Counted from the stretch's first letter, positions 76 through 38,634 are shown. The stretch: DNA of 40,323 nucleotides from Candidatus Pacearchaeota archaeon (GCA_016196285.1 JACPXY010000056.1:1-40323), one strand, 5' to 3'. Notes: generated from the letters alone by a model not told the origin. Numbers and translations: made by a program.

Positions 76-435
76 ATGCCTTTGGAAGAATGGAAGATTG
101 AAAGATTAAATAATTCTCTTGAAGATTTATTGGGAGATTTTAGAAGAAATGTTATTTTTAACGAAAAAGAATCTGCTGTAAGGAAGATAAGAAAACTAAC
201 GCTTGGTTTTCTTGGCTTTTATCCAGAAATTATAAAATTGGTTCAAGATGCAGACATCGATTATTGTGCGAAAGTATGGAGAGCTGCTTACGAATTTCTT
301 GAAGATTGTACTCAATGGGCTTCTCCATTAGCTGAAAAGTATTATGATTGTGTTGATGCGTACGAAGCTTTAAATGATGTAAAAGGCAGAGTTTATCTGC
401 TTTGGCAAACACATACTGATTCAGAAGAAACTTAA
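76..435 (+). CDS. hypothetical protein (119 aa)
   Basis: Intact ATG-initiated ORF in an AT-rich block. No motif I recognise. Its 3' end overlaps the convergent cobO-like gene by 4 nt. Confidence 0.4.
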   Translation: MPLEEWKIERLNNSLEDLLGDFRRNVIFNEKESAVRKIRKLTLGFLGFYPEIIKLVQDADIDYCAKVWRAAYEFLEDCTQWASPLAEKYYDCVDAYEALNDVKGRVYLLWQTHTDSEET

Positions 436-977
436 TACTCCAAGCCCTTTCTGGCTAATGTTCCTGAATCATACGGGTGCTTTATCTTTTTAATTTCTGT
501 GACTAAATCTGCTAATTCAAAAATTCTTGGAAATGGAATGTGTGAGCCAGTTAATATGAGGTCTTTTTTCTTATCTCTTGATTTTAAAAAATCAATTACT
601 TCATCTTCTTCTATTAGTTTTAATTGAATTGCGTACAGCAATTCATCTGCAATTATAATGTCGTACTCCTGTTCCATGCACTCTTTGAGATAGTCAAAAG
701 CCTGCTTTACTGCAGCGATATGTTCGTTACTCGGCTTACCGATTACCCATGATCCTGTTCCGAAGCGCTTGAAGGAGAAGTTCGGAAATTTCTCTAATGC
801 CTTTATCTCACCAGGATAATCTATCTCTATGTCTCCTGTGCCGTTTTTCATGAACTGCACTAGATGGACTTTATAGCCATTCCCGCATGCACGCAATGCT
901 GTACCGAATGCGCTTGTTGACTTTCCTTTTCCATTCCCCCAGAATATTGAGAGCATGCCTAATCCTGATTTGTCCAT
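432..977 (-). CDS. cobO: cob(I)yrinic acid a,c-diamide / corrinoid adenosyltransferase (CobO/BtuR family)
   Basis: 181 aa. N-terminal P-loop GNGKGKSTSAFGTALRACGNGYKVHLVQFMK and the C-terminal HPYD motif are typical of CobA/CobO/BtuR. Confidence 0.75.
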   Translation of the reverse strand: MDKSGLGMLSIFWGNGKGKSTSAFGTALRACGNGYKVHLVQFMKNGTGDIEIDYPGEIKALEKFPNFSFKRFGTGSWVIGKPSNEHIAAVKQAFDYLKECMEQEYDIIIADELLYAIQLKLIEEDEVIDFLKSRDKKKDLILTGSHIPFPRIFELADLVTEIKKIKHPYDSGTLARKGLEY

Positions 978-1051
978 GCTGTTCTATGGATAACGCGCTT
1001 AATAATATTTATATACTGAATACTCATATAGATATTAATTGGTATATTACT

Positions 1052-1243
1052 ATGAATCCTCATAATAAGAAAAGAAGCATACTTGAATTAGCCAGAAAAG
1101 AGAAAGTAGTTACGACATCCGAGATTGCACGCTTCCTCAAGGTCAGCTGGAATACTGCTGAGAGTTACCTCAAAGACTTGGTAATTGAAGGCAAGATGAT
1201 ACAAAAGAAGAAAGAGGGAGTTAATTTATGGCTTATAAAATGA
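1052..1243 (+). CDS. small winged-helix DNA-binding protein (63 aa), possible regulator of the downstream surface cluster
   Basis: The internal Met at 1052 of ORF 887..1243 gives MNPHNKKRSILELARKEKVVTTSEIARFLKVSWNTAESYLKDLVIEGKM, an HTH/wHTH pattern. An AT-rich TATA-like box lies near 1003-1013. The N-terminal extension in the ORF track is antisense to cobO. Confidence 0.55.
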   Translation: MNPHNKKRSILELARKEKVVTTSEIARFLKVSWNTAESYLKDLVIEGKMIQKKKEGVNLWLIK

Positions 1244-2007
1244 TAAGAATGAGAGATAAAAATGGGCAGGCGGCGCTGTGGGTGATTGTTGCACTGGCTT
1301 TTGTGGTTCTTATTGGTCTGCTTATGTTCATCCGGCAGAAGCCTGGGCCGATAACACTTGAAGAGAATTATAATCCTCAAGCATTTATTGACCGATGTGT
1401 GAGAGATGCTGTGCAGGAAGAAGTTGATGTCTTGCTTCCGCGAGGAGGATTTAGAGAGCCGAAGAGCTCGCTCGCATACAAGAATGTCTCGATAACTTAC
1501 TTGTGCATGAATACTGGATATTTCGCTCCCTGCATCAACCAGCATCCGCTCTATATAGAGGAAGTGAAGCAGGAGCTGTATACGAATACGTATGAGAAGA
1601 TTGACTCATGCTTCACTGAACTTGAAACTGCATTAGAACAGCGCAATCAAGAGGTTTCCTTTGGAGAACTAGGTGTCTCCTTTGACCTTGCGCCGCAGCG
1701 CATTCTCGTTTCTCTTGAAAGAGATATGCAGATTCAGGGCCGTGAAGGCAGTGAAACGCTCTCGACTTTTCAGATTTTGATACAGAGTCCCTTTTACGAC
1801 CTTGCGAGCGTCGCTGTAGAGATAGCTAGCCAGGAAGCTTCATACTGCTATTTTGAATACGCCGGATATTCCCTACTGCATCCTGAGACTGAGATTCGGA
1901 AGACCACGCTTTCTGACAGCACCAAGCTCTATTTTATACGTGATGTTTACTCACAAAAAGAATTGACAATTGCGGTACGGGGATGCGCGATACCGCCCGG
2001 AGTTTAA
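1228..2007 (+). CDS. class-III (prepilin-like) signal peptide protein, surface-module component A1
   Basis: N-terminus is (M)RDKNG|QAALWVIVALAFVVLIGLLMF: a short basic leader, Gly-Gln, then a hydrophobic helix. It aligns colinearly with its paralog at 6012..6779 (ITYLCMNTGYFAPCINQHPLYIEEVKQEL versus IKYLCYTTQYYQTCVVQQPLIKEHVEEEL). The start could be 1228, 1240 or 1249. Confidence 0.7.
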   Translation: MAYKMIRMRDKNGQAALWVIVALAFVVLIGLLMFIRQKPGPITLEENYNPQAFIDRCVRDAVQEEVDVLLPRGGFREPKSSLAYKNVSITYLCMNTGYFAPCINQHPLYIEEVKQELYTNTYEKIDSCFTELETALEQRNQEVSFGELGVSFDLAPQRILVSLERDMQIQGREGSETLSTFQILIQSPFYDLASVAVEIASQEASYCYFEYAGYSLLHPETEIRKTTLSDSTKLYFIRDVYSQKELTIAVRGCAIPPGV

Positions 2008-2008
2008 T

Positions 2009-5000
2009 ATGAAACAAAGCATTAAATCTTTTCTTGTGTGCATACAAATCCTTCTCTTGATTACCTTTAGCATCTCATCATCTTACCTTCTCAAGGAAAG
2101 CTCTGGAAGTATCGAAGGTGCAGAGAAAAGACAAAATTCTCTTGATGGCGCGCAGCTTCTTGCTCTGCTTGGCAAACTTCTCTTCGGGAAGAATGGATTT
2201 GTGAATGCGCTTGAGACGAGTGACTTAAGTGCCGGATCCTGGACATGCCTTGAGAGCAAATCTGGAGAAGTATGCCAAGAGTTTGTTGCGAGCGAATGTA
2301 ATTCACTCTGTACATCTGACTGTGTCCCCTCGACGAGAAATAACGTGGCTCAGTGCAAAGTAGGCACGTGCTATGATTCTCGAGAAGGCACGTGTCAAAC
2401 TGGTTCTCCTCAAGCCCTGTGCACTGGTAATAATGGAACATGGTTTGATGATCCGTATGGCAATGTGGCTGAATGCAGACGAGGATGCTGCCTTATCGGA
2501 CAGCAAGCATCATTCATCACTGAACAGCAATGCACTCGCCAGGCATCTTTATTGGGAACAAGCAAGCTCTTCAAGCCAGAGGTCGCAAATGAAGTGGCGT
2601 GTCTCGCGCTCGGGCAATCGCGCGAGGAAGGTGCGTGTGTTTATGGTACTGACACTACTGGTAAGAACTTGTGCAGGTTCACCACGAAAGAAGTGTGTAT
2701 CCAGACTATCAAAGGTGCATTTCACTCCGGGTTCTTATGCTCGCATCCACAGTTGAATACTGCATGTGGAGCGCAGAAATCAACCGGGTGCGTTTCAGGG
2801 AAAGACGAAGTATATTGGTTTGATTCATGCGGCAACCGCGAGAATATCTATGATGCGCAGAAACCGAGGAGTTGGAATAATGGAAGAATCCTGATGAAAG
2901 AGCAGAGCTGCGCGCTCGGTTCTGGAAACAATTATCTTGCTAATGCCCGGGTGTGCGGAAACTGCAATGCCCTCGAGAGCAGTATTTGCAAGAAAGCAAA
3001 TTCCGGAGAAGCCGCGATAGGAGACTTTGTATGCAAGGACTTAAGTTGTGTTGATGAGTGGGGGAACACGAGAAAGCATGGCGAATCATGGTGCAGATAT
3101 CAAGGATCGACAGGTCTTGAAGGAAACAGAGCAACAGATACTGTCGGCAGCAGGCATTTCAGACAGACATGCCTGCGAGGCGATATTGCAGATGATGCGT
3201 GTGCTGATTTCAGAAATGAAGTATGTGTTGAGAGCAAAACAAGTGTCTCCGGCGGCTCGTACTCGACTGCCGCGTGCACAATTAATCGATGGCAGGAATG
3301 CCTAGCGTACAACAATCCCCAGAAACCTGAATTGAAAGATAAATGTTCTACGAATCCGTACTGCTTTATCAAAAGAGTAAGTGTCGGTTCTGACTTTAGT
3401 TTTAATCTCTGTACACCAAAGTATCCTCCAGGATTCTTGCTTGAAGAGAATGGACGCGGAGAAGGGGCTGAGACTATCTGCAGTCTTGCCTCGCAGACGT
3501 GCACAAAAGTCATGGTGAAGAAGCTCACTGGGTGGAAGTGCCAGGCGAACTGCCAGTGTGATACTCCTGCCTTCACGCAACAGATGAATGACTTATGCAT
3601 AAGCTTAGGCGATTGCGGGGCGAAGGCAAATTACCTTGGAGAAATTAGTGAAAGCTACCGCATCAGCGGCGCAGGTGTGCTTGATGGGGCTTATCTCGGC
3701 GGAGTGAAAAGATATGCAGATGAATCTCTCTTTAAGGGGCGTGTTGCTGAAGTAGGTGCTCTTGCTGCATCTCTTGGCAGCCTCGGCAGATCAGACGATA
3801 TTGGATTTGCAGCAGAACCCAGTGATCCGACTGCTAAAACACGAGGCGCGCTGAACCTGCCTATAGGAGCTGCAGGAACACTTCTCGGCCTCGCTGCTGC
3901 GTATGCACCTGGAGCGCTCGGATATCTTGCAGTTGTTAATGTAGCAGGAAGCTTTTCACTTGGCGTCGGCGCGAGCGCAGCAGCTGCTGGAGAGGCTGCA
4001 TCTGCTGGCACAGCCGCGGCAAGCGGAGCTATAGCACCGCAAGTAGCAGGGTTTGCAGGTGTGCTTGCCGGCGCTGCAATGGGGTTTGCACTTACCTCTT
4101 TCTTGATTGACATTACTGGAGTAGGGCGCGGACTTCATCCTGCAGTCACCTACTCTCTGATTGCCGCAGGCACTGTTGGCGGTGCTATCATGGGTTTCAG
4201 CGCTTATGCTGGTGGAAAGCTCGCTGCTGCCTGTGCAACAGGATATGGATGCGTAGTTGTTGCGATTGTCGTGATTATTATCCTTATACTAAAATTTGTC
4301 TTTAATGTTGGAAAAGTAAAACATATTCAGGTTTCATTCCAGTGCAAGCCATGGCAGGCGCCTCTAGGAGGAACGAACTGTGGTAAATGCGGTTCAGACG
4401 GACGGACATGCACGAGGTATGCGTGCTCCTCGTTAGGACAGACGTGCACGCTGATTAATGAGAATACTGATGCAGTTGCATGCATTGACAGTAATCCAAA
4501 CGATGTGGCCTCGCCAGTCCTTAATCCACTTACTTCTTTAATCAGTGTATCTCATTCGTATGAAAATGTCAGCGAGCGCGGATTTACGATTAGGAATATT
4601 CAAACAGGAAGCGGATGTGTTGAGCCGTATTCAACCCTTATCTTCGGTCTCCAGTTGAATGAGCCAGGGCAGTGCAGAGCATCCACGAGCAGCACTGCCT
4701 TATTTAATGAGATGGAGGGTGATTTCGGTATCAGCAGTTTGTTCAGGCACAATCACAGTGTTATCTTGCCTGTGCCTGACCTCAATGCATTGGGATATGC
4801 AGGATATATTCCTGCAAATGCATCAGGGAACTTCAATCTCTTCGTGCGCTGCCAAGACAAGCGAGGAAATGTTAATCTTGCGCCTTATGTGATTAACTTC
4901 TGCGTGCAGAAAGGGGTTGACGTGTCTCCGCCTGCAATAACACATCGAGAGCCTGTGTATGAGTATGTCTCATTTGCAGAGAGTGAGAAGAACATTACAG

Positions 5001-5980
5001 CATATACCAGTGAACCGGCAAGCTGCAGATGGGATGTGATTGATGGAGCGTATGATTCATTGCGCAACACGCTGGCGTGCCTTGATGACCCTGATCAACA
5101 AGGCGTGTTCGGCTGGCCGTGTACTGCACGTGTACCACTTCAGATTAAGAATGATTCCCGTTTCTTCATCAGGTGCAAAGACCAGCCATGGCTGAATAGC
5201 ACAGTTATTGTGTTTAGTATCGGCTCCCAGCAGATACCATACTATGCTAATGCAATTAACTACACGCACCTGCAACGAGTGAACTTCCAGTCAGGCAATC
5301 CAGGAATTACCAATATCACTCTTCCTGAAACACGCATCACTGATATTATTGCGAATGGCACTAACAGAACGCAGAGCCGAAATGTGAATCAGCAGAGTTA
5401 TCCATTTATCCTGCGCAAGAGCACTGCTCCTTTACGCATCGATTCAATAACACCGAACAATCAGACACTCATATTCGGCACAGTTCCTGCATCAGTCAGT
5501 ATACAGGTACAGACCTCTGGAGGCGTTGATGGAACTGCTGCATGCTCATACGTTTTTGGCAACAGCACTATACTCTTCTTCGAGACATGGCGTACTACGC
5601 ACAAGCAAGTATTTCAGTCGCTTTTCCCAGGAGTGATAACCTTGCCGATTATCTGTGAGGACCTTGCTGGAAATACTGCAACAACTACCGCGCGCTTTTC
5701 GGTTGCTCATGATACGCGTGCTCCACGCGTTACACGCACTTACAGCGCCGGCACGATTCTTACAATTATAACTGATGAGCCAAGCCAGTGCATATACGGC
5801 ACAAGCTCATGTAACTTTGAGAGTATGAATGGAACGCTCATGAGCGGAACCCAGCGTATTCACACTGCTGTCTTTGACAAAGAGCGCACGTATTATGTTA
5901 AATGCAAAGATTCTTTTCTGAACGGGCCAGGTAGCGCGTGCAATATTATTGTCAGAAGGAGCCAGGCAGATGTATCGTAA
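2009..5980 (+). CDS. giant Cys-rich surface protein B1 (about 1323 aa): signal peptide, Cys-rich ectodomain, Gly/Ala-rich multi-TM core, Cys knot, four beta-sandwich-like modules
   Basis: Met at 2009 (MKQSIKSFLVCIQILLLITFSISS) is a Sec-type signal and sits 1 nt after the A1 stop codon. There are dozens of Cys and many N-x-S/T sequons in the C-terminal half. The N-half is paralogous to 6776..8257 and the C-half to 9803..12235. Confidence 0.85.
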   Translation: MKQSIKSFLVCIQILLLITFSISSSYLLKESSGSIEGAEKRQNSLDGAQLLALLGKLLFGKNGFVNALETSDLSAGSWTCLESKSGEVCQEFVASECNSLCTSDCVPSTRNNVAQCKVGTCYDSREGTCQTGSPQALCTGNNGTWFDDPYGNVAECRRGCCLIGQQASFITEQQCTRQASLLGTSKLFKPEVANEVACLALGQSREEGACVYGTDTTGKNLCRFTTKEVCIQTIKGAFHSGFLCSHPQLNTACGAQKSTGCVSGKDEVYWFDSCGNRENIYDAQKPRSWNNGRILMKEQSCALGSGNNYLANARVCGNCNALESSICKKANSGEAAIGDFVCKDLSCVDEWGNTRKHGESWCRYQGSTGLEGNRATDTVGSRHFRQTCLRGDIADDACADFRNEVCVESKTSVSGGSYSTAACTINRWQECLAYNNPQKPELKDKCSTNPYCFIKRVSVGSDFSFNLCTPKYPPGFLLEENGRGEGAETICSLASQTCTKVMVKKLTGWKCQANCQCDTPAFTQQMNDLCISLGDCGAKANYLGEISESYRISGAGVLDGAYLGGVKRYADESLFKGRVAEVGALAASLGSLGRSDDIGFAAEPSDPTAKTRGALNLPIGAAGTLLGLAAAYAPGALGYLAVVNVAGSFSLGVGASAAAAGEAASAGTAAASGAIAPQVAGFAGVLAGAAMGFALTSFLIDITGVGRGLHPAVTYSLIAAGTVGGAIMGFSAYAGGKLAAACATGYGCVVVAIVVIIILILKFVFNVGKVKHIQVSFQCKPWQAPLGGTNCGKCGSDGRTCTRYACSSLGQTCTLINENTDAVACIDSNPNDVASPVLNPLTSLISVSHSYENVSERGFTIRNIQTGSGCVEPYSTLIFGLQLNEPGQCRASTSSTALFNEMEGDFGISSLFRHNHSVILPVPDLNALGYAGYIPANASGNFNLFVRCQDKRGNVNLAPYVINFCVQKGVDVSPPAITHREPVYEYVSFAESEKNITAYTSEPASCRWDVIDGAYDSLRNTLACLDDPDQQGVFGWPCTARVPLQIKNDSRFFIRCKDQPWLNSTVIVFSIGSQQIPYYANAINYTHLQRVNFQSGNPGITNITLPETRITDIIANGTNRTQSRNVNQQSYPFILRKSTAPLRIDSITPNNQTLIFGTVPASVSIQVQTSGGVDGTAACSYVFGNSTILFFETWRTTHKQVFQSLFPGVITLPIICEDLAGNTATTTARFSVAHDTRAPRVTRTYSAGTILTIITDEPSQCIYGTSSCNFESMNGTLMSGTQRIHTAVFDKERTYYVKCKDSFLNGPGSACNIIVRRSQADVS

Positions 5981-6011
5981 GTATTATAAACAAAACAGGT
6001 GTCAAGGAAGC

Positions 6012-6779
6012 ATGAGTCAAAAGAGGAAGGGTCAGGCGACGCTCTTTATTATTATTGCACTGGCGATTGTTGCAGTTGCTTTGCTTCTATTCCTCTACTT
6101 TAGACCTAATGGAATTAGTGTGACACAAGACGTAGTAAGCAATCCGGAAGCATATCTTGCCTCATGCATTGAGCCAGATGTAAGGGAGCAGCTTGAGCCT
6201 ATCGGAGCGCAGGGAGGGTATCTGAATCCTGAAGGATACCTCACCTATCAAGGAACAAACATCAAATATCTATGCTACACTACACAGTATTATCAAACAT
6301 GCGTTGTACAGCAACCTTTAATTAAAGAACATGTTGAAGAAGAACTTACTGGTGCCTTGAGCGAATCAGTGAATGAATGCGTGCAGGCACTTATTGATGA
6401 GTATGAACGGCGCGGCTACTCTGTCTCTTCAGGAAGTGTAAGCCATGATGTCTCAATCATACCTCATAGCATCACCCTAAGCATTACTGCACCGATGACT
6501 GTTACCAAGGAGACGAGCAGAACCTTCAATTCATTCAGTGCAGAAATTCCAAGCGAATTTTATGACTTGTTGATAACTGCAACAAGCATCATTGATTTCG
6601 AATCGAAGCTGGGAGATGCTGAAACTCTTGTTTATACACAAGCATATCCTGACCTTGAAGTCAGAAAAGTAAAATTGAGCGATGGCAGCAAAGTGTACAC
6701 TGTCACCGATATCGAGAGTGAAGAATTCTTCACCTTCGCATCGAGGAGCCTTGCCTGGCCTCCGGGATATACTTCATGA
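6012..6779 (+). CDS. class-III (prepilin-like) signal peptide protein, surface-module component A2
   Basis: The internal Met at 6012 gives MSQKRKG|QATLFIIIALAIVAVALLLFLYF. It is a paralog of A1 and its stop overlaps the next start (ATGA at 6776-6779). Confidence 0.7.
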   Translation: MSQKRKGQATLFIIIALAIVAVALLLFLYFRPNGISVTQDVVSNPEAYLASCIEPDVREQLEPIGAQGGYLNPEGYLTYQGTNIKYLCYTTQYYQTCVVQQPLIKEHVEEELTGALSESVNECVQALIDEYERRGYSVSSGSVSHDVSIIPHSITLSITAPMTVTKETSRTFNSFSAEIPSEFYDLLITATSIIDFESKLGDAETLVYTQAYPDLEVRKVKLSDGSKVYTVTDIESEEFFTFASRSLAWPPGYTS

Positions 6780-8257
6780 AACCTATACTGTTCATCTCTA
6801 TTATAGTATTTATTGCATTGCTTACTGGTTCTGCTGCTCAGGAACAAACTGTATGCTGTGAACAGACAACAAATAATCTCTTCTGCCAGCAGGTCTCTCA
6901 AAGCCAGTGTGCACCGAATGCGCGACAAGCACCGACATCCTGCGAATCTACGAGCTTCTGCAAACCTGGAGTCTGCTACAGCCCTGTTGAGGGCACGTGT
7001 ATGGAAAACACTCCTCAGATAACATGCAATGCACGGAATGCTACTTGGTCTGCGACATCTCCTCCTCAATGTAATCTTGGCTGCTGCATTCTCGGTGACC
7101 AGGCCGCATTTGTCTCCCTGGTACGATGCAAACGCCTGGCATCCTTTCTTGGATTGCAGGTCAACTACAATCAGAAGATACAAAGTGAAGTTGCATGTGT
7201 CTTGAGTGTTCAGAACCAGGATAGAGGTGCGTGTGTTTATGAGTCTGAATTTGAAGCAAGCTGCAGATTCACTACCAGAGTTGAATGCAACGCTGGTTTG
7301 AACAGTACTGGGAGCGGCGCATTCTACAAAGACAAACTTTGCACTGCTCCTGAATTAGGCACCGTCTGCGAGCGCACGAGAAAGACAACGTGTGTCCCTG
7401 GCAAAGAGGAAGTATATTTTGTCGATACTTGCGGCAATCCAGCAAATGTATATGATGCAGGAAAGCTTGAAGACACTGCGTACTGGACTAATGTGGTGAA
7501 GCCGGAAAATTCGTGCACTCCTGGCTCAGCGAATGCAAACTCAAAGAGCTGCGGGAACTGCAACTATCTTCAAGGCAGCATCTGCAGATTGGGTGAGCAA
7601 GGTACTAAAGCGACTTACGGAGACTATATCTGCGCTGACTTAAACTGCAAGAGCACCAGCAACGGCAAGCCGTATAAGCACGGCGAGTCCTGGTGCGTGT
7701 ACAAAGATGAAGGAGAGACTGGAAAAGGCAAAAATACCATCGGCAGCAGGTTCTATCGGCACATCTGCTTAAACGGGCAGGAAGTAGTTGAACAGTGCGC
7801 TGACTTCAGACAGGAAGAATGTATTGAATCAGGCATTGAGATCTCATCAGGATTATTTGCGCAGGCGGCATGCAGAGTGAATCGGTGGCAGGACTGCACT
7901 GCGCAGACTGAACAGCTTGATTGCGAGAATAATGATCGGAGAGACTGCCTCTGGCGCTCTGATATTCAGAATGCTAAATCAGGGAGCGGCGCGTGCATCC
8001 CAAAGAATCCTCCTGGATTGAAGTTCTGGGAAGGAGAGCAGGCAAAGGAAATCTGTGCGCAGGGCAACACTCAATGCACTGTAATATTTGAGAAAGGAGT
8101 CTTCGGCGGAGAGAAGTGTGTGGAGAACTGCGAGTGCCTTGATGCTGGATGGGAAAAGCAGCGCATTGCCTACTGCGCTGCATTAGGGGACTGCGGTCCA
8201 AATGTTAATTGGGTCGGCACGAAAGGATACAAGGAAGGATTCACAATAACAAGATAA
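6776..8257 (+). CDS. secreted Cys-rich protein B2N (493 aa), equivalent to the N-terminal ectodomain of B1
   Basis: Signal peptide MKPILFISIIVFIALLTGSAAQ. Long colinear blocks are shared with B1, for example KHGESWC, CGNCN, CADFR.E.C.ES and LGDCG. It ends exactly where the membrane core of B1 begins. Confidence 0.85.
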   Translation: MKPILFISIIVFIALLTGSAAQEQTVCCEQTTNNLFCQQVSQSQCAPNARQAPTSCESTSFCKPGVCYSPVEGTCMENTPQITCNARNATWSATSPPQCNLGCCILGDQAAFVSLVRCKRLASFLGLQVNYNQKIQSEVACVLSVQNQDRGACVYESEFEASCRFTTRVECNAGLNSTGSGAFYKDKLCTAPELGTVCERTRKTTCVPGKEEVYFVDTCGNPANVYDAGKLEDTAYWTNVVKPENSCTPGSANANSKSCGNCNYLQGSICRLGEQGTKATYGDYICADLNCKSTSNGKPYKHGESWCVYKDEGETGKGKNTIGSRFYRHICLNGQEVVEQCADFRQEECIESGIEISSGLFAQAACRVNRWQDCTAQTEQLDCENNDRRDCLWRSDIQNAKSGSGACIPKNPPGLKFWEGEQAKEICAQGNTQCTVIFEKGVFGGEKCVENCECLDAGWEKQRIAYCAALGDCGPNVNWVGTKGYKEGFTITR

Positions 8258-8304
8258 TTATCGTGAACTTTTCGATTTATAGAGTAGAGGGAAGAAAGGA
8301 CTGT

Positions 8305-9033
8305 ATGACCGAAAGATTCTTTAACCATCTTATTCGTGACACGACCATGAAACTATCTCGGGAGAGTGCCTTGCTGCTTACTGCAGCAACTCTTGCAGCG
8401 ACACTGACTTGCTTGGTACAGGCAAAACCCTTTGGTGCAGAAACTGTGCAAATAAGACCAAAATATGAGCCAGTCTTTGTTGCATTGACTCCTGAACATT
8501 ATAAAGAAGCAGCATTACAATGTTCAAAACTTGAAAGTTTTGCTGTTAATGCCTTGACATTCCAGGATTCATCAAGCGGGCCTGCACATATATGGCATCA
8601 GCCAGCATATGCGCATATGACCAATACTCCTGTATATCCTTCCATCTCCATCCTCTTCCTTCACCTCTCTAAATCTAATTATCTTGCGCAGACCTTTAAG
8701 AATCCCTGCCTCTATAAGATTACTGAATACACTCGTGAAGGAAAGCCGAATGCCTCCTGGATTGGCTCGATGCCGTATCAAGAAGACATTGCAACAAACC
8801 GCGCGGAGCGTATCTGCTTCGAAAAGTTCTCCCCTGAGATGACTCGGCTTGAGAGAACGGAGAGAGGAATCTCTGTACCTTCAGGAAAACTGCCCTATGT
8901 GTTTGAAGTCTATGAAGGTGTGGGTTCAAAGAAAAAGATTCATGGACGAATTAACTTTATTCTCGAATGCCCTCCAGTGAAACTTGAGGGTATGCCTCGG
9001 AGGATTGAACTTGAGAACAAAAGGTATAAATAA
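8305..9033 (+). CDS. secreted hypothetical protein
   Basis: Candidate Met at 8305 or 8347. MKLSRESALLLTAATLAATLTCLVQA|KP looks like a signal peptide. No recognisable domain. Confidence 0.55.
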   Translation: MTERFFNHLIRDTTMKLSRESALLLTAATLAATLTCLVQAKPFGAETVQIRPKYEPVFVALTPEHYKEAALQCSKLESFAVNALTFQDSSSGPAHIWHQPAYAHMTNTPVYPSISILFLHLSKSNYLAQTFKNPCLYKITEYTREGKPNASWIGSMPYQEDIATNRAERICFEKFSPEMTRLERTERGISVPSGKLPYVFEVYEGVGSKKKIHGRINFILECPPVKLEGMPRRIELENKRYK

Positions 9034-9053
9034 AATGAATTGCAGGGAATACT

Positions 9054-9761
9054 ATGCGTAAACCATCGCTTGCAGCGCTGCTGAGTGCAGGTATAATTGG
9101 ACTGACTGGATGCAATTCATTCGATGTTGACCCTGATGCGCCCTTCACCCCGGTATATCGTGCCTTAAACTCAGTCGGCATCCGTAAAGATTTTGTAGGA
9201 AGAATAACAGAGGGAAAATCCATTTTTACTGAACCTGCACGAGAGGAGATTATTGTCTATGCACAGCCTCCTGTTCAGCAGGCGCCTAGAGAGACGCAAG
9301 AACCTCAGAAGCCAGAGTATCCTTCTCTTTCTAGAGCAATGCTCATCACTGACTGGATTGACAGAAACACTGACTATGGTCTAAACCCAGGAGAACTTTG
9401 GATTGACCATAATGAGAATGGCATTATCGATGGAGATGATGAATTTCGCGGTTTCAAGATTGACTGGGCGCGAACAAATCCTTTGAGACTCTACTTCTCT
9501 GTCTTTATTCCTTCAGAAAGTCCACTGTTGAATGCATCCATAGTATACACTATTCGTAAAGCAGACACGCGAGAGGTTGTTATCCATTATCAAGACCTTA
9601 ATATTCTAAAACCTTCTTCTAATAATAGAAAGGTAGCAAGCTTTTCTAGCGCTTTTATCCAGAGTCTCCCTGCTGGAATGTATACATGGGAAGTTGGATT
9701 TACAAATGTACACACCTCTTTTGGAGAATCATTAGCTCGGGGACCTCTGCGACTGCATTAA
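9054..9761 (+). CDS. putative lipoprotein with an EF-hand/dockerin-like Ca-binding loop
   Basis: MRKPSLAALLSAGIIGLTG|C is a lipobox-type signal (L-T-G-C). DHNENGIIDGDDE (nt 9405-9443) matches a D-x-N-x-N-G-x-I-D calcium-loop pattern. Confidence 0.6.
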   Translation: MRKPSLAALLSAGIIGLTGCNSFDVDPDAPFTPVYRALNSVGIRKDFVGRITEGKSIFTEPAREEIIVYAQPPVQQAPRETQEPQKPEYPSLSRAMLITDWIDRNTDYGLNPGELWIDHNENGIIDGDDEFRGFKIDWARTNPLRLYFSVFIPSESPLLNASIVYTIRKADTREVVIHYQDLNILKPSSNNRKVASFSSAFIQSLPAGMYTWEVGFTNVHTSFGESLARGPLRLH

Positions 9762-9773
9762 TATTCGGCAATA

Positions 9774-9781
9774 TTTATAAA
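9774..9781 (+). promoter_or_regulatory. TATA-like box (tttataaa) 21 nt upstream of the B2C start; implies a leaderless or very short-leader mRNA
   Basis: An AT-rich octamer in an otherwise GC-richer spacer. The spacing to ATG 9803 fits archaeal TATA-to-TSS distances. Confidence 0.45.
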
Positions 9782-9802
9782 CAAAGGTTCTCTTGCTAGT
9801 CC

Positions 9803-12235
9803 ATGCACAAAAGAGGGCGTAGCGTAGCTGTTGTTTTCTCCTCCTGTCTGCAGATTTTCCTGCTGGTAAGCATGAGTTTTGCGGTTTCTTTTATATTGAG
9901 TGAGAGCGTTGCTGCACAGACTCCTAATGCTCCTGTACCTCAACAAGCTGCACCCACTATCTCTCCTGGAGGTACACTTCCTCCTGATAGAACTATAATT
10001 GATACTCCCACTCCTCCTCCAAGTTCTCCGAGTTCATTAACTAACCCTAGCGGCGTAAGGACAGGTTTAATAAAAAGCCCTGACTCAATTATCTTCAGTC
10101 ATGATGGTCAACAGTATTTCTATGATGCTGATGAAGCAAGGTATTTCACTGCTGATGGGAGTAAAAGTCTACCAGATGTGCCTGTTGGTGCAACAAAAAT
10201 CCAAGGGTTCTCCAGTACAACAGGCACCAGCACATACAGCTGGACAAGCAAGGGAACTTTCACTCTAAAAGGAGAATCTGTTAATGGGCTAGCAGGTACA
10301 CGCACACTTAATGGTGTTGAACAGAATGTTGTGAACATAAAGGGAAGTATCTATGAAGTTGATGCAAATGGAGTTATTGGTGATAAAGTTGGCCAAGGAT
10401 ACTATAAAGAAGGTCCTTTAGGTTTTGGAGGCACTTACAACTTCTTTCTCGGCAATCTGCTGGAGGGAGTTGTCTGGGCAGCGACTGTTGTCGGCGTGAT
10501 ACAGCTGCTTGGTGCGTTGGGAGGATTTGATGAAGAACTTACAAAATCACTTTCATTGTCTGCAGCAGGAGGCATCATTGGCGGAAAAGCAGCCTATGGC
10601 TTGTTCGGCAAAGCTATCCCAGGCAAGGCAGGAAGCGGTGGAATCTGGAAGCAAGGTCTCTCGCCTAAGGCAGGCATTGCTATTGGCGTGGCAATTGCAG
10701 TAGTTATCTTTTTAGTGACTTATAAAGACGAGAAGACGAAGACTGTTTCATTCCAATGCCTGCCATGGGAGCCTCCGATTGGCGGCGCGCAGTGCGAGAA
10801 GTGCAATCAGGATCCACAGCAGCCGTGCTCTGAGTATCGATGCAAGGCTCTTGGGCAGGCTTGTGAGTTGGTGAACAAAGGAAGTGAAAAAGAACAATGT
10901 GTTTGGGTGAGCAGGAACGATGCAATGAGCCCTACTATTACTCCATTAACCTCTGCATTGTCTGATGGATTGTCGTATAAGCCCTTAGTGGCACGGCCTA
11001 CTGCGCTTGGTACTAGAATTGTCAAAGGGCAGGAAGGGTGCATTGAAGCATTCACCCCGCTTGTTTTCGGCATCCAGACAAATGAACCTGCACAATGCAA
11101 GATAGACTATGAAATCAAGAATTACAGCGAGATGCAGTTCTTCTTTGGTGAGAGCAATTATTACTTGCTTAATCATACTCAACGCATGAAACTGCCCTCT
11201 CCGAGAACTGACGCAGGAGAAACTGCGCCTTTGTTCAAGAATGACGGAACATTTAACTTGTACGTGCGCTGCCAGGATGCAAATGGCAATGTGAATGAAG
11301 ACATTTATACAGTAGAGTTCTGCGTGAATAAGGGGCCTGACACTACGCCTCCTGTCATTGAAAGCACGAGCATCATCACAGGCAGCCCTATTCGCTATAA
11401 AGCTGATAGTACGCCGTTTGCCTTATTCGTTAATGAACCGAGCCAGTGCAAGTGGAGCAGAGAAGACAAAGCATATGACAGCATGGAGAATGTATTGAGC
11501 TGTGATGCCTCTGCTGAGTTGATTAATGCTGAACTACGGTATGCGTGTGAGACAAACCTGACCGGCATCATTGACCGGCAGAATAATGAGTTCTTCTTTC
11601 GATGCAGAGATACTGCAGGAAATACCAATGTAGAAAGTATGCCTCTTCTCTTGCGCGGCAGTCAACCGCTCACGATTCTTGAAGTCAAGCCTAACGGCAC
11701 AATCTTCGGCAGCACTGCAACAGTGCCAGTTGAATTGGAAGTGCTGACTGATGACGGCTCTGATGAAGGCGCTGCGCAGTGCTTCTATAATACCACTCTT
11801 ACTGAAGGGTACCAGAAGATGTTTGAAACGGACAGCTTTGCGCATAAACAAATTCAGGATTTAACTTCTGGAAACTACAAGTATGCATTTAGATGCATTG
11901 ATGCAGGCGGTAATATTGCTGAAGCACAGACCAGCTTTACAGTGGTAGTTGACAAGGATGCACCAATAGTTACTAGAACATATCGAGACACTGCCTTGAA
12001 GATTGTCACGAATGAGGATGCTGAGTGCACATATTCAACGCAGAGCTGCAATTTCAATCTCCTCGAAGGCATACGAATGGAATACTCGAATATACAAACA
12101 AAGAATGCGTTATTCGCCCCGTGGAAGCCAGGACAGACGTATTATATCAAATGCGTTGACAAGTACGGAAATCAGCCGACTCCAGATGTATGCAGTGTGC
12201 TTGTCAGTCCTCGACAATTTGCTCAGCAGAGTTAG
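9803..12235 (+). CDS. surface protein B2C (810 aa), equivalent to the membrane core plus C-terminal ectodomain of B1
   Basis: It has its own signal peptide, a Pro/Ser/Thr-rich linker and a Gly/Ala-rich TM region. VSFQCLPWEPPIGGAQCEKCNQDPQQPCSEYRCKALGQACELVN aligns with B1 VSFQCKPWQAPLGGTNCGKCGSDGRTCTRYACSSLGQTCTLIN. Four modules carrying the C...[RK]C.D..GN pattern follow. Confidence 0.85.
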   Translation: MHKRGRSVAVVFSSCLQIFLLVSMSFAVSFILSESVAAQTPNAPVPQQAAPTISPGGTLPPDRTIIDTPTPPPSSPSSLTNPSGVRTGLIKSPDSIIFSHDGQQYFYDADEARYFTADGSKSLPDVPVGATKIQGFSSTTGTSTYSWTSKGTFTLKGESVNGLAGTRTLNGVEQNVVNIKGSIYEVDANGVIGDKVGQGYYKEGPLGFGGTYNFFLGNLLEGVVWAATVVGVIQLLGALGGFDEELTKSLSLSAAGGIIGGKAAYGLFGKAIPGKAGSGGIWKQGLSPKAGIAIGVAIAVVIFLVTYKDEKTKTVSFQCLPWEPPIGGAQCEKCNQDPQQPCSEYRCKALGQACELVNKGSEKEQCVWVSRNDAMSPTITPLTSALSDGLSYKPLVARPTALGTRIVKGQEGCIEAFTPLVFGIQTNEPAQCKIDYEIKNYSEMQFFFGESNYYLLNHTQRMKLPSPRTDAGETAPLFKNDGTFNLYVRCQDANGNVNEDIYTVEFCVNKGPDTTPPVIESTSIITGSPIRYKADSTPFALFVNEPSQCKWSREDKAYDSMENVLSCDASAELINAELRYACETNLTGIIDRQNNEFFFRCRDTAGNTNVESMPLLLRGSQPLTILEVKPNGTIFGSTATVPVELEVLTDDGSDEGAAQCFYNTTLTEGYQKMFETDSFAHKQIQDLTSGNYKYAFRCIDAGGNIAEAQTSFTVVVDKDAPIVTRTYRDTALKIVTNEDAECTYSTQSCNFNLLEGIRMEYSNIQTKNALFAPWKPGQTYYIKCVDKYGNQPTPDVCSVLVSPRQFAQQS

Positions 12236-12626
12236 CTTCAAAGAACTGTGAGAAGCGCTTTCCTTCTGATCGCACCATCTTGAGACTCACTGCCCAATAT
12301 TTTCCTGTGTCTCTCAGCTGCTCTGGTCTCAGAAAGAACCATCCTGCATGATTGAAGCGGACTGCGATGACCGGATGCAGACCAAGAATGCTCGAGAAGA
12401 GCATGAAATCCTCAACTTGCTGTTTCGTGATATATACTGTAGATTTCTTTGAAGACTTTGCCTCGATAGTGTATCCTTTTCTTCCGAGCTTTGCAGCGAG
12501 TATATCGCACGGCGAATCATCACCGACACCTGAACCTGCCACTCTGACTGCCCGCCAGCCCTGCTCAGTAAACAGCCTCACCAATTCGCGCTCTGCATTC
12601 GAACCTTTTGATTTATTTGACGGCAT
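12204..12626 (-). CDS. hjc: archaeal Holliday junction resolvase Hjc
   Basis: KGSNAERELVRLFTEQGWRAVRVAGSG...DILA...EAKS matches the Hjc nuclease core. Its 3' end overlaps the convergent B2C gene by 32 nt. Confidence 0.8.
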   Translation of the reverse strand: MPSNKSKGSNAERELVRLFTEQGWRAVRVAGSGVGDDSPCDILAAKLGRKGYTIEAKSSKKSTVYITKQQVEDFMLFSSILGLHPVIAVRFNHAGWFFLRPEQLRDTGKYWAVSLKMVRSEGKRFSQFFEANSAEQIVED

Positions 12627-19040: not shown

Positions 19041-20578
<1,538 letters not shown>

Positions 20579-32781: not shown

Positions 32782-32815
32782 CTAGAGGATAATGAAGGTA
32801 GATATTTATTCCAAA

Positions 32816-32887
32816 TGGGAGTGGAGGGAATCGAACCCCCGACACCACGAGCTTCAGTCGTGTGCTCTCCCACTGAGCTACACTCCC
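32816..32887 (-). tRNA. tRNA-Phe (anticodon GAA), no encoded CCA
   Basis: The reverse complement folds as a cloverleaf. Acceptor stem GGGAGTG/CACTCCC, D arm GCTC-AGTGGGA-GAGC, anticodon arm CACGA-CTGAAGC-TCGTG, T arm GGGGG-TTCGATT-CCCTC, discriminator A. Confidence 0.9.
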
Positions 32888-32925
32888 ACTGGTAGCTCAA
32901 GGGTTCCGAGAGGTTTTAAATGTTA

Positions 32926-33817: not shown

Positions 33818-34160
33818 TGTGAGCCAGTGTAGGCCAGATTCTGTCAGACCTCGCCATGAAGCGAACGGTCTGTGCTGACATCTGTCTCTGCGTGCGGCTA
33901 AGGCACTTGCATCCACGAAGACAGCCGTTTCATCTTATCTTAAAGGCATGCTCCCCGCATGGATCATTGCGCACTTCAAGCAGTGCCGTTTCTGTACTGG
34001 AGCTTAACCTTGCGGCTATCTGTCTTTCAACAGGTCGTGTTTTCTACAACCTTTCTTACAAGAAAGGTTGTAGGATGTCCGGACCTTCCTCAGGAAGAAC
34101 GAGTATACGCTCATTCGCTGATTGAACAGCACTTCCCGAAGTCAGCTCACTGGCTCACCT
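33818..34160 (-). ncRNA. rnpB: RNase P RNA (archaeal type)
   Basis: On the minus strand, the terminal helix is GTGAGCCAGTG (34158-34148) paired with CACTGGCTCAC (33829-33819). CR-I-like GAGGAAGGTCCGGAC, internal ACAGAAA, and 3'-proximal GACAGAATCTGGCCTAC (CR-V-like) are present, plus a 13-bp hairpin CTACAACCTTTCT/AGAAAGGTTGTAG. The plus-strand ORFs here are spurious. Confidence 0.8.
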
Positions 34161-34982: not shown

Positions 34983-36293
34983 TTATCGATAGAAGATATT
35001 CTGGACATCAAACGGCAGAACTCTACCTTCACGCGCAATATGGACGCATGAACGCTTTACCACTCTAACGTCGAAATCATACGCGTCGCTGAAACGTATG
35101 CCAAGAACCTGAAAAGTGTCTTCTATGTTTAGTGGACCTAAGAAGCTCCGAGCAGCATCAAAAAAAGATTGCTCTTTGAAAAGCCTGGCTGCAAGAGCCT
35201 CCAATTCAGGATGCTGAGTGAAGGCTACTGTTCTTCTCAATCCTGCATCTTCCAGAAGTATCTTTGGTTTTACCTTTCCACTGATTGCGTATGCTCTGCC
35301 TTTATATTTTAATGCAAATCCCATAAATAGCGCATCTGGATTGCAGGGAGCAGGAATTAAATCATCGAGAGCAAAGACACTGCTCTGTGTTGCTATCTCT
35401 CTCCGCAATTCTGATAGAGTGAATCTCTCGGTTAGAGGATTATATTGCTCACTTCTTCCTGCTGCTTGCGTTGGCTGAAAATTAACTCCCCGAACTGCTT
35501 TCTGCTGCACTCCAAAATCAATTAATCTCCCAATCTCATCTGTATTGGTCCCTTTTTGCAAAGTAGAAACAAGAATTGTTGAGATGTCATATTTATTTAC
35601 TCTTTCCACTGCCTGCTCTCGTATCTTAGTTAAATCAGCCCCGCGTATCTTTCTCAGCGCATTCGGTTTGAATGAGTCGAACTGCAGATAGATTCCAAAA
35701 TCTTCTCTTTGCTCTGCAAGCCGTGCTGCAAAGTCGGCATCAGTTGCTAAACGTATCCCATTTGTATTCACCATCGTAAACTTAAATTTACCTTTAGACT
35801 CTTGCACAATTCTGAAGAAGTCGGGATGCATTGTTGGTTCTCCGCCGCTAATCTGCAAAACATCTGGTCTGTCTGGGAGGTTTGCTACTTGCTGCATTGT
35901 TTCAAGAATCTCTGATAACGGCAGGTGAGAACCGTGATCTGGACCAGAAGCGGCAAAACACGTGGGACACTGTAAATTGCATCGGTCAGTCACTTCTAAG
36001 ACTGAGACGCATGAATGCTGACCATTTATGTCTGAGACATATGTACGAAATTCTTCTTTAGTAAGAGGTATATCTGACCTTGCAATATTCTCTGCTCTGA
36101 AACTCTTAACTTTTGTATAGTATGTTGGATCGTCTGAGAGCAGGACTTTCTCATCAGGATGCCCATGATCAGCGTTCTTCTTAATAAGATACGTATTATC
36201 TCCCTCAGAATGCACGCTTGCCCTGACAGGAGCAAGGCATCTCTGTCCATTAACTGTGTGTGCGCAGAGACTTACCGTTCTCTCCTCAGACAT
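34983..36293 (-). CDS. radical SAM enzyme, COG1964-like (family that includes tetraether lipid synthase Tes/GDGT-MAS)
   Basis: VTDRCNLQCPTCFA is a CX3CX2C cluster motif. ISGGEPTMHPDFF and VNTNG are also present. The N-terminal SLCAHTVNGQRCLAPVRASVHSEGDNTYLIKKNADHG resembles the ribbon preceding the rSAM core in COG1964 proteins; this family assignment is from memory. The start at Met 36293 overlaps the lgt-like gene by 8 nt. Confidence 0.6.
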   Translation of the reverse strand: MSEERTVSLCAHTVNGQRCLAPVRASVHSEGDNTYLIKKNADHGHPDEKVLLSDDPTYYTKVKSFRAENIARSDIPLTKEEFRTYVSDINGQHSCVSVLEVTDRCNLQCPTCFAASGPDHGSHLPLSEILETMQQVANLPDRPDVLQISGGEPTMHPDFFRIVQESKGKFKFTMVNTNGIRLATDADFAARLAEQREDFGIYLQFDSFKPNALRKIRGADLTKIREQAVERVNKYDISTILVSTLQKGTNTDEIGRLIDFGVQQKAVRGVNFQPTQAAGRSEQYNPLTERFTLSELRREIATQSSVFALDDLIPAPCNPDALFMGFALKYKGRAYAISGKVKPKILLEDAGLRRTVAFTQHPELEALAARLFKEQSFFDAARSFLGPLNIEDTFQVLGIRFSDAYDFDVRVVKRSCVHIAREGRVLPFDVQNIFYR

Positions 36294-37056
36294 ATTTTGT
36301 AGATCTTGTTCCATTCGAGTGTATCCCGTCAATAAAGAGTATCTTTCCATAATACAAAGCACCTATCAAACTGGCTAGTTGTATTGCTGATAATCCTGCT
36401 GCAAGTGGGATGGCTGGCTTTATAAATTCTATCAAGAATCTGAAAACAAGATATGAGAAGATGAATATCTTGAAGAGAGCTCCGTTCTTGAGCGTATCTT
36501 TCTTATCAGCTCTGTACAATCCAATCCATATTCCTATAAGAAATATAATCTCATATAAAGATGTTGGATGACGAGGTATGCCATCTCCCTGATCAAATGC
36601 CCATGGAAGTGTTGAATGAATGCCTACTGTTCTATCGCTGACTCCTGTCAGAAGACAGCCGATTCTTCCAATAATCATTGCCAAAATAATCGGAAAGGTG
36701 AAGAGATCTCCAGTTGGTTTCCTTTCCTTGATGAGCTTCTTAGTTATTTCTACACCGATGATTCCTCCTAACAGGCCTCCGACAATAGTCTGCCCCTGGA
36801 AGTAATACAGAATGGAGGAAGGATTCAAGAACAAGGCAGGATTCTCAAGCGCAGCAAGCAGTCTTGAGATAAGGAGAGCGCCAATCGCTGCGCCGATTAA
36901 TAGATAAATCCTTCTTGTTGGAGACATAAAGTCTCCTTTTCTCTCTCGAAGCTTAAGATAATAGCTAAATCCAAGATAATAGGCAAGCAGATCAAATATA
37001 AGATGGGATGGAATACGTATCTCTCCTAAGACAAGATCGAGAGGAAAGGTCACCAT
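36286..37056 (-). CDS. lgt: prolipoprotein diacylglyceryl transferase (Lgt) family protein
   Basis: Polytopic membrane protein. IIGRIGCLLTGVSDRTVGIHSTLPWAF...GIPRHPTSLYEIIF matches the Lgt signature (GR.gc...G...G..t..PW ... RHPtqLYE). Confidence 0.7.
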   Translation of the reverse strand: MVTFPLDLVLGEIRIPSHLIFDLLAYYLGFSYYLKLRERKGDFMSPTRRIYLLIGAAIGALLISRLLAALENPALFLNPSSILYYFQGQTIVGGLLGGIIGVEITKKLIKERKPTGDLFTFPIILAMIIGRIGCLLTGVSDRTVGIHSTLPWAFDQGDGIPRHPTSLYEIIFLIGIWIGLYRADKKDTLKNGALFKIFIFSYLVFRFLIEFIKPAIPLAAGLSAIQLASLIGALYYGKILFIDGIHSNGTRSTKYV

Positions 37057-38344: not shown

Positions 38345-38634
38345 GATAATCAAATTTAAGGCTATTAGTAGCTGAGTGCTGAGCCCCTCGCGTTCTCGGG
38401 ATTTACACACCAGCTCTATCAACGTCATCTTCTTTGACGGCCTTCGTTGTCTCGTCTTGCGGATGGCTTCGTCCTTAGATGCTTTCAGGACTTATCCATA
38501 CAGTGCGTAGCTACACGGCCTGCTTCATAACAACCGTTACACCAGCGGCACCCGAGTACCGTTCCTCTCGTACTAGATACTCGTTCCACTCAGACAACAG
38601 CGCGCCTAGTAGATATCATACAAACTGTCTCGCG
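38345..38634 (-). rRNA. 23S rRNA, 3'-terminal exon (domain VI plus end of domain V)
   Basis: The reverse complement contains CGCGAGACAGTTTG (E. coli 2594-2607 region), CTAGTACGAGAGGAAC (sarcin-ricin loop), CCTGAAAGCATCTAAGG and GTTGATAG...CTACTAATAG. The 3' end is approximate. Confidence 0.85.

Follow-up and report, generated by a model that had tools for sequence, protein, structure and literature searches.

A 40,323-nucleotide (nt) stretch of DNA from Candidatus Pacearchaeota archaeon (GCA_016196285.1 JACPXY010000056.1:1-40323; the whole stretch is called the window here) carries an operon-like unit of six core genes. A small winged helix-turn-helix (wHTH) gene is followed by two paralogous sets, each combining a protein with a prepilin-type signal (A1 or A2) with a giant, cysteine-rich protein that is either fused (B1) or divided between two genes (B2N and B2C). 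With moderate confidence, we read this block as encoding a lineage-specific, vertically inherited envelope complex that serves as the main surface coat and as an adhesion platform, and not as a pilus; a role in host contact is plausible. The complex most likely consists of two paralogous spike-like units rooted in the membrane, B1 and B2N plus B2C, together with A1, A2, and a small dedicated regulator.

Few uncultured archaea are as widespread as Pacearchaeota and Woesearchaeota, which are thought to be host attached; the module bears on the makeup of their cell covering and on the way in which they make contact with partner cells. It is near-universal in both groups, takes up ~11 kb in genomes of ~1 Mb, belongs to the core genome, and encodes folds that have no solved relative. 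A coat and adhesion role fits this universality and size, and it fits two reports on the clade: Pacearchaeota have been described as unusually strongly host attached (PMC7906910), and Pacearchaeota and Woesearchaeota have 51 lineage-specific families in common, mostly of unknown function, many of which are membrane or extracellular proteins (PMC8204110). Literature searches turned up no prior account of the A-B module. Two concrete predictions are offered, namely, a mature A protein that begins with Q+1 and a disulfide between the head and the stalk of B.

Organization and conservation of the block

On the plus strand, from 1052 to 12235, the open reading frames (ORFs) run in the order wHTH, A1, B1, A2, B2N, inserted ORF 1, inserted ORF 2, B2C. 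The block genes are translationally coupled, with a 16-nt overlap of the wHTH gene and A1, a B1 start codon that lies 1 base past the A1 stop, and an ATGA shared by A2 and B2N. The only sizeable upstream gap is a 75-nt AT-rich intergenic region between the divergently oriented CobA and wHTH genes, and the TATA-box-like sequence that it contains, TTTATATA, is a candidate promoter for the block. An initial annotation of the window had described two tightly packed copies of the same gene pair on one strand with a wHTH gene upstream. The gene map and BLASTP agree with this in all respects but one, which is that the second B is two genes with two unrelated ORFs between them. A1 and A2 are 33% identical (E=1e-45), B1 residues 64-544 match B2N at 37% identity (E=1e-89), and B1 residues 682-1319 match B2C at 33-37% identity (E=2e-55). 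Judged from these alignments, the paralogy of both A and B is far above chance, and either B1 may be a fusion of B2N and B2C or B2 may be a split B1.

How widespread is this arrangement? The database holds 499 full-length homologs of B1 (1210-1460 amino acids [aa], 37-55% identical), all of them unnamed "hypothetical" proteins without Pfam domains, from metagenome-assembled genomes of Pacearchaeota, Woesearchaeota, and Nanoarchaeota. A profile-guided scan of species-representative genomes, one per species, located at least 470 B loci. Gene order was examined in 82 independent loci from other Pacearchaeota/Woesearchaeota genomes, in which ORFs were called from ATG starts only and labeled by phmmer. 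Full-length B is present in 76/82. Adjacency of A and B across related genomes, a test set in advance by the initial annotation, is borne out: A stands directly before B in 75 cases (median gap, 1 nt) and directly before a stand-alone BN in 67. The order A-B-A-BN is seen in 58 of the 82 loci, and BC comes next in 34, a count limited by the many contigs that stop ahead of the expected BC position. B2N is a separate gene in 65/82 loci, and B2 is nearly always split; B2N and B2C are neighbors in 9 and lie 0.6-2 kb apart in all others. One locus has a fused B2 (L066 10670-14662, 1330 aa), which is probably a recent read-through and is uninformative for topology. A wHTH homolog is found in 35/82 loci and overlaps A in 28/33 cases. 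The CobA and Hjc genes that flank the block recur in other loci, with FtsZ and ribosomal L1/L10/P1 genes farther out. In a few loci, there is an additional, third A-B pair, or full-length B occurs twice in a row (L035 153-8876, L062 9190-18965, and L054 9722-17308).

Since the paralogs have diverged and the gene order and flanks recur across loci, the duplication predates the radiation of the clade, and the split B2 is the normal functional state. The tandem duplication described at first is thereby not a recent one but an ancient, syntenic locus of the core genome. At least dozens of species, and probably hundreds, have this locus fixed in place, with the same housekeeping genes on either side. 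Vertical inheritance, specific to the Pacearchaeota/Woesearchaeota lineage (Nanoarchaeota/Nanobdellota in GTDB), is the best reading of these data. An origin as a provirus or mobile element was rejected, as a B-profile scan of 2.9 million viral contigs returned zero relatives.

Not all parts of the B proteins are equally conserved. Mean pairwise identity is 58-60% for B2N and 55% for B2C, 48-51% for the B1 head and 40-42% for the B1 stalk, and 67-70% for the neighboring enzymes. Heads (48-60%) and modules (40-55%) both appear to be under purifying selection. That the split B2 is more conserved than the fused B1 hints at a division of labor, with a conserved unit as the core and another that evolves faster.

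The A proteins and the question of a pilus

The leader of A1, MAYKMIRMRDKNG, has a predicted cleavage site before Q14 and is followed by a hydrophobic helix (aa 14-35), a Pro-containing linker, and an alpha/beta globule. The K/R-G-Q motif and hydrophobic helix picked out in the initial annotation prove to be a conserved class III-type signal: in 153 of 157 A1/A2 orthologs, x[G/A/S]Q precedes a stretch with at least 18/20 hydrophobic residues, and the 4 without it are probably mis-called starts from ATG-only ORF calling. Among the 153, only G (121), A (25), and S (7) occur at position -1; K/R occupies position -2 in 138, Q occupies position +1 without exception, and 146 have an aromatic residue at position +5. 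Archaeal A24 prepilin peptidases accept such a leader pattern, and Epd-type pilins typically have Q at +1. The system to which these belong, type IV filament (TFF) system 1, has been placed in DPANN archaea (bioRxiv 10.64898/2026.04.22.720090). The paralogs also have conserved Cys residues, with 6 in 51/52 A1 orthologs (4 in the other one) and 4 in 52/52 A2 orthologs.

Does a pilin follow this signal? The AlphaFold2 (AF2) model of A1, made with a 71-sequence alignment, has a predicted local distance difference test score (pLDDT) of 91.9 and a predicted template modeling score (pTM) of 0.79. It shows a helix (11-35), then 14 residues of sequence-variable coil (36-49), and a separate alpha/beta globule of ~215 aa, whereas a pilin has a long N-terminal helix that packs its C-terminal half on a beta-sheet. 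A Foldseek search of the PDB with this model gave no match at E<=1e-3 (best E 8e-3, TM ~0.13), and pilins and archaellins are absent from the top 50 matches listed. No pilin or Class_IIIsignal model in Pfam and NCBIfam matches A1 or A2 at E<=1, and PDB sequence and profile searches with A came back empty. The A family itself is large: of 1.84 billion cluster representatives, 6374 are related at E<=1e-3 and 564 still at E<=1e-30. As modeled, A is a prepilin-type signal on a non-pilin body; the earlier description of A as pilin-like holds for the signal and fails for the shape of the body. With A, the substrates of archaeal prepilin peptidases may include a new, non-pilin class. A1 and A2 would be exported and cut after G/A/S by a prepilin-type peptidase encoded elsewhere. 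Cut A would start with Q+1 and keep the 22-residue hydrophobic helix as its sole anchor, with the globule on a flexible linker, and A1 and A2 probably pair together.

Could the block nevertheless be an accessory set for a type IV pilus, in which A1 and A2 are minor pilins that prime or tip a pilus built by machinery elsewhere and B is a PilY1-like adhesin? We regard this as unlikely. It draws on the conserved class III signal with Q at +1 and on the presence of TFF system 1 in DPANN archaea. Large adhesins adjoin pilin genes in archaeal type IV pilus loci, where class III proteins outside the known families are usually read as minor pilins (PMC4858521), and pili-like appendages have been described on ultrasmall groundwater cells (PMC7906910). 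However, the A model is without a continuous pilin spine, its helix, coil, and globule being distinct, and Foldseek pairs it with no pilin. The 3-4 helices of B make it an integral membrane protein, which cannot ride at the tip of a fiber. A Pfam scan of the ORFs in the window revealed no prepilin peptidase, secretion ATPase, or platform gene, and a motif-limited scan of 84 loci revealed no A24 peptidase (a multi-helix ORF with GxGD[x][KR]) or secretion ATPase (Walker-A GPTGSGKT) within 10 kb. Nor does Pfam give B a DUF2341/PilY-like, pilin, or beta-propeller match.

The B proteins, their topology, and the cell surface

The head of B1 has a mixed alpha/beta fold, with four beta-hairpin-plus-helix units at its N-terminal side; despite these units in the secondary structure, an internal repeat is not significant in an hhalign self-comparison (E=0.26). 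It has invariant W/D/S/N/E loops (YWFDSCGNxENIYD, GESWC) and is depleted 5-fold in N-X-S/T sequons, with 30 observed versus 148 expected from composition in 32 homologs. The linker that follows has an AF2 pLDDT of <50 for aa 593-681, is variable in length, and has a mean pairwise identity of 21-30%. Next comes a region of 3-4 helices that is 39% Gly plus Ala, in which helix C is strongly hydrophobic and is directly followed by a conserved GIGKxKK patch. The Cys knot is the most conserved segment of B1 (56% mean pairwise identity). The stand-alone B2C is laid out in parallel, with an N-terminal signal or anchor, a linker (aa 35-210), helices a/b/c (aa 215-307), a 7-Cys knot (aa 312-375), and four immunoglobulin (Ig)-like modules (aa 376-810). 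In both proteins, the segment before the conserved helices is highly variable: that of B1 (aa 546-676; 3644-4036) is Gly/Ala/Ser-rich and disordered, and that of B2C (aa 35-210; 9905-10432) is Pro/Ser/Thr-rich and then turns into a beta-rich, Cys-free stretch, with length and composition varying.

The four C-terminal modules are mutually homologous (hhalign probability 64-97%, E 1e-11 to 6.5e-5), and a variable, sequon-rich insert (B1 aa 1063-1135) lies between modules 2 and 3. Of the 14 invariant Cys that they hold, two in each module form an "EPxxC ... [YF]xxC.D" pair whose spacing is like that of the strand B-F disulfide of Ig-like domains. Their C-terminal ends (D.AGN...F.V.VD..AP) give sub-threshold Pfam matches to the Ig-like families Big_13, Y_Y_Y, DUF4625, and Big_3_3 in 1-6 of 32 B1 homologs (the counts are 6/32, 4/32, 3/32, and 1/32); in B2C, a match reaches E=1.8e-5, and Big_13 scores 25.6 bits, below its gathering cut-off of 27. 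Overall, B has ~60 invariant Cys. The domain order given in the initial annotation, from N-terminal signal through Cys-rich ectodomain, Gly/Ala-rich helices, and knot to four beta modules, stands as described. Its further claim that the modules are dense in sequons is true of B1, which has 13 of its 14 N-X-S/T sequons there, but is less so across 32 homologs, in which the enrichment is 1.46-fold and uneven. Sequon enrichment was accordingly set aside as proof that the modules are external.

That these domains match no named family, as first noted, is confirmed by Pfam, NCBIfam, PDB, and Foldseek searches, none of which gave a significant match. In Pfam and NCBIfam, the seven proteins searched yielded nothing beyond the sub-threshold Ig-like matches. 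The model of B1 aa 60-840 has no Foldseek match at E<=1e-3, the best E values being 0.48 (PDB) and 0.61 (BFVD), and no fusexin or HAP2 class II fusogen is among the top 50 matches listed for the head in either database. Known S-layer proteins do not match B in Pfam, NCBIfam, or PDB sequence and profile searches, nor the modeled part of B1 in Foldseek. The sole match of the B profile among PDB sequences is LolC (E=0.12), over the Gly/Ala-rich helices; a relationship was rejected, as what is shared is the Gly/Ala-rich character of membrane helices. The helix region has no significant profile match to a MacB/FtsX-type permease domain and no Pfam FtsX match. Three of the four domain types are without a detectable relative in characterized families or solved structures. 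For this reason, and because A departs in two defining tests from the class III signal pilins that it resembles, we rate the module as new in kind.

How are the parts of B held together? The number of Cys is odd (41, 43, or 45) in mature B2N from 52/52 orthologs, while the B2C knot has 7 in 30/30 and the B2C modules 14 in 29/30; in B1, the head count is odd in 48/52 and the knot has 7 in 50/52. The simplest reading is a single head-knot disulfide, by which B2N would be covalently joined to B2C in the split copy. Such a disulfide, implied by the odd counts, would put head and knot in the same oxidizing extracytoplasmic compartment. Co-evolution was assessed by a partial mirror-tree analysis, in which distance-matrix correlations were controlled for the mean of the other families and subjected to a permutation test. 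Partial r is 0.64 for B2N-B2C, 0.47 for B1N-B1C, and 0.39 for A1-A2 (each permutation p 5e-4), so that the two separate B2 chains correlate more strongly than the halves of single-chain B1. This suggests that B2N and B2C act as one protein and that A1 and A2 act as partners. The initial annotation had treated A and B as a pair, which the conserved adjacency of the genes supports and co-evolution does not: A with its adjacent B gives weak or nil values (A1-B1N, 0.16; A2-B2N, -0.03). Direct A-B contact is unsupported by this test, though the constant adjacency still argues for a shared pathway.

In the coat and adhesion complex that we favor, the B head and the knot plus modules would be extracellular and folded with ~32 disulfides. 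One of these would probably join the head (43 Cys) to the knot (7 Cys), tethering secreted B2N to membrane-embedded B2C. The complexes would form membrane-rooted spikes or a coat with the Ig-like modules facing outward, and the strongly conserved head may bind a conserved partner or ligand. In this way, the complex would adhere to hosts or particles.

A related proposal, which we think improbable, is a canonical S-layer, with B1 and B2 as the proteins of a paracrystalline wall, A as an assembly or anchoring factor, and a purely structural role for the whole. The near-universal, single-locus, core-genome distribution is consistent with it, as are the Ig-like modules, the sequons, and a two-component layout that recalls SlaA/SlaB. 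S-layers of Pacearchaeota and Woesearchaeota are undescribed (PMC5744192), and a 10-nm periodic envelope has been seen on ultrasmall cells (PMC7906910). On the other side, the anchor of B is an internal multi-helix region and not C-terminal, the modeled part has no sequence or fold likeness to solved S-layer proteins, and the block has a dedicated co-transcribed regulator. Moreover, archaeal S-layer proteins are typically Cys-poor, while B1 has 67 Cys.

The topology of B raises a third possibility, a transmembrane receptor or linker, which we consider quite doubtful. Here, only the head and A would be exposed on the cell, and helices A-C would cross the membrane three times, leaving the modules and the knot, the latter as a zinc site, in the cytoplasm. 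The protein would thereby couple a ligand outside the cell to a structure within it. The three confident AF2 helices and the conserved K-rich patch past helix C fit such a protein, and B2C shows the same helix count following an external segment. In addition, the CxxC of the knot could bind metal, and the sequon numbers of the modules are near expectation in many homologs. Set against this, each module holds one or two pairs of the 14 invariant Cys, and the two Cys of module 3 are too few for a metal site; the odd Cys in head and knot fit an external cross-link; and Ig-like modules of the Big type usually belong to extracytoplasmic proteins. External modules are favored by the combination of odd-odd parity, an Ig-like character, and invariant Cys that come in pairs in all four modules. 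We therefore infer, as the favored arrangement, that the head and the knot plus modules both lie outside the cell.

Several points weigh against the coat and adhesion complex as drawn here. (i) Constitutive coat proteins are not usually co-transcribed with a regulator, and the high Cys content combined with an internal multi-helix anchor is unlike known archaeal S-layer proteins. (ii) No prepilin peptidase was seen in the 40-kb window or, by motif, in the 84 loci, and A shows little co-evolution with the adjacent B. (iii) Three helices of spanning length after the head and a positive patch after helix C would, by the positive-inside rule, make the knot and modules cytoplasmic. An even number of spans requires either that the "helix 0" of the linker spans the membrane or that helix B does not. 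Helix 0 is poorly conserved, weakly hydrophobic, and of low AF2 confidence; in B2C orthologs, helix B is Lys-rich and seldom above the hydropathy threshold. (iv) The 1.46-fold module sequon enrichment is only a weak sign of an external location.

Very unlikely, finally, is a membrane-engaging machine for cell-cell bridging with a host, fusogen-like or pore-forming and unrelated to any known, in which cleaved A is held only by an extractable hydrophobic helix, B carries conserved Gly/Ala-rich, fusion-peptide-like helices under a disulfide-locked head, and the two would insert into or remodel a partner membrane and so open the link to cytoplasm or nutrients on which DPANN symbionts presumably depend.

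Feature map, neighboring genes, and known systems

Positions of the block, its parts, and its flanking genes in the window
Feature	Position	Strand	Basis and remarks
CobA-type adenosyltransferase, flank of block	432-977	-	Pfam scan
TATA-box-like TTTATATA	1008..1015	+	Sequence reading; 37-44 nt 5' of the wHTH ATG at 1052
wHTH, 63 aa, first gene of block	1052..1243	+	Pfam DUF977, HTH_24, FaeA, Fe_dep_repress_N, E 1e-5 to 4e-4; Pfam HTH matches overall, E 1e-5 to 1e-3
A1, class III (prepilin-type) signal-anchored protein, 259 aa	1228..2007	+	Motif conservation, AF2 model
B1, fused giant membrane protein, 1323 aa	2009..5980	+	ORF and homologs
B1 signal peptide or signal anchor, aa 1-35	2009..2113	+	Hydropathy peak 2.08 at aa 4-22
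B1 N-ectodomain (head), aa 76-545	2234..3643	+	43 Cys, ~41 conserved; AF2 pLDDT mostly >90
B1 variable Gly/Ala/Ser-rich linker, aa 546-676, with weakly hydrophobic "helix 0"	3644..4036	+	AF2, alignment
B1 membrane helices A (677-703), B (711-733), C (738-763)	4037..4303	+	AF2, hydropathy, family alignment
B1 Cys knot, aa 770-830	4316..4498	+	7 invariant Cys; AF2 pLDDT 89-96
B1 four Ig-like beta modules, aa 831-972, 973-1062, 1136-1236, 1237-1323	4499..5977	+	hhalign homology, Cys pattern
A2, A1 paralog, 255 aa	6012..6779	+	Signal RKG/Q (cut at slash), 4 conserved Cys
B2N, stand-alone secreted head, 493 aa	6776..8257	+	Signal peptide ...GSAA/QEQ (cut at slash), 43 Cys, no membrane segment
Inserted ORF 1, 228 aa from ATG at 8347	8347..9033	+	Signal-peptide-like N-terminus
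Inserted ORF 2, 235 aa	9054..9761	+	Lipobox LTG/C (cut at slash)
B2C, stand-alone stalk, 810 aa	9803..12235	+	B1 C-terminal paralogy
Archaeal Holliday-junction resolvase Hjc, other flank	12204-12626	-	Pfam scan

The two ORFs inserted between B2N and B2C differ in their distribution. Inserted ORF 1 has no counterpart in the other loci examined. At the position of inserted ORF 2, 17 other loci have a lipobox-bearing ORF, and these form a homologous family (e.g., L009 16244-16897) with no detectable sequence similarity to ORF 2. The window also encodes a bacterial-type prolipoprotein diacylglyceryl transferase (36286-37056, minus strand; Pfam LGT, E=6.8e-23). Together, this enzyme and the lipobox ORFs suggest bacterial-style lipoprotein maturation in the clade.

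The remaining genes in the window are housekeeping genes: aminoacyl-tRNA synthetases, PabB-like genes, TruB, ribosomal protein L31e, RNase P RNA, tRNA-Phe, and the 3' part of the archaeal 23S rRNA. These surroundings identify the window as archaeal chromosome and not a mobile element. All of the following lie on the minus strand. The archaeal RNase P RNA (94 bits) is at 33819-34158, and tRNA-Phe (GAA) is at 32815-32888. A class II aminoacyl-tRNA synthetase (Asp/Asn/Lys type) occupies two ORFs, 19298-19786 and 19820-20578, that are 33 nt apart, with the anticodon-binding domain and catalytic positions 2-103 on one and catalytic positions 116-237 on the other; the interruption may reflect a frameshift or stop, an error in sequencing, or a genuine split. 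In the 23S rRNA (3' part, 38345-40323), model positions 1964-2987, 1024 in all, are spread over 1979 nt, which implies an insertion of ~950 nt. A 102-aa ORF (39159-39467) lies inside this stretch, which raises the possibility of an rRNA intron that encodes a homing endonuclease.

How does the module compare with systems that are already known? A is closest in its signal to the Epd-type pilins of TFF system 1, which are cleaved by A24 peptidases of the EppA/PibD family: both have a basic leader, [K/R][G/A/S], Q at +1, and ~20 hydrophobic residues. It differs from them in matching no pilin profile, in its coil-separated, 215-aa alpha/beta fold, and in having no assembly genes nearby. The sugar-binding proteins of the Sulfolobus "bindosome" offer another likeness, as they too place a class III signal on a sizeable, linker-tethered globule that is not part of a filament. 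A is unrelated to solute-binding proteins, however, and is paired with a giant membrane protein instead of an ABC transporter. In PilY1-type adhesins with their minor pilins and in the archaeal DUF2341 proteins (PMC4858521), as here, a large surface protein adjoins genes with pilin signals; B is set apart by its internal membrane helices, by the lack of a DUF2341 or beta-propeller match, and by a locus that is not a pilus locus.

On the envelope side, the modules give weak matches, all below gathering thresholds, to the bacterial Ig-like families Big_13, Big_3_3, DUF4625, and Y_Y_Y, and they have a conserved Cys pattern of their own. B is comparable to the archaeal two-component S-layers (SlaA/SlaB of the Sulfolobales) and to S-layer glycoproteins built of Ig-like arrays, such as csg of Haloferax: it is a large, secreted glycoprotein candidate whose Ig-like modules stand in tandem, it comprises two partner chains in the split copy (B2N and B2C), and its distribution is that of a core-genome gene. 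It differs in its extreme Cys content, internal multi-helix anchor, and head of unmatched fold, and no homology is detectable. Other lineage-specific, very large, extracytoplasmic proteins of host-dependent archaea, for which a part in host interaction has been proposed, are the nanohaloarchaeal SPEARE proteins and the murein-transglycosylase giants of Pacearchaeota and Woesearchaeota (fam00969; PMC8204110). B, which has no recognizable enzymatic or adhesin domain, differs from these in being far more conserved and syntenic and in belonging to a fixed, duplicated A-B module.

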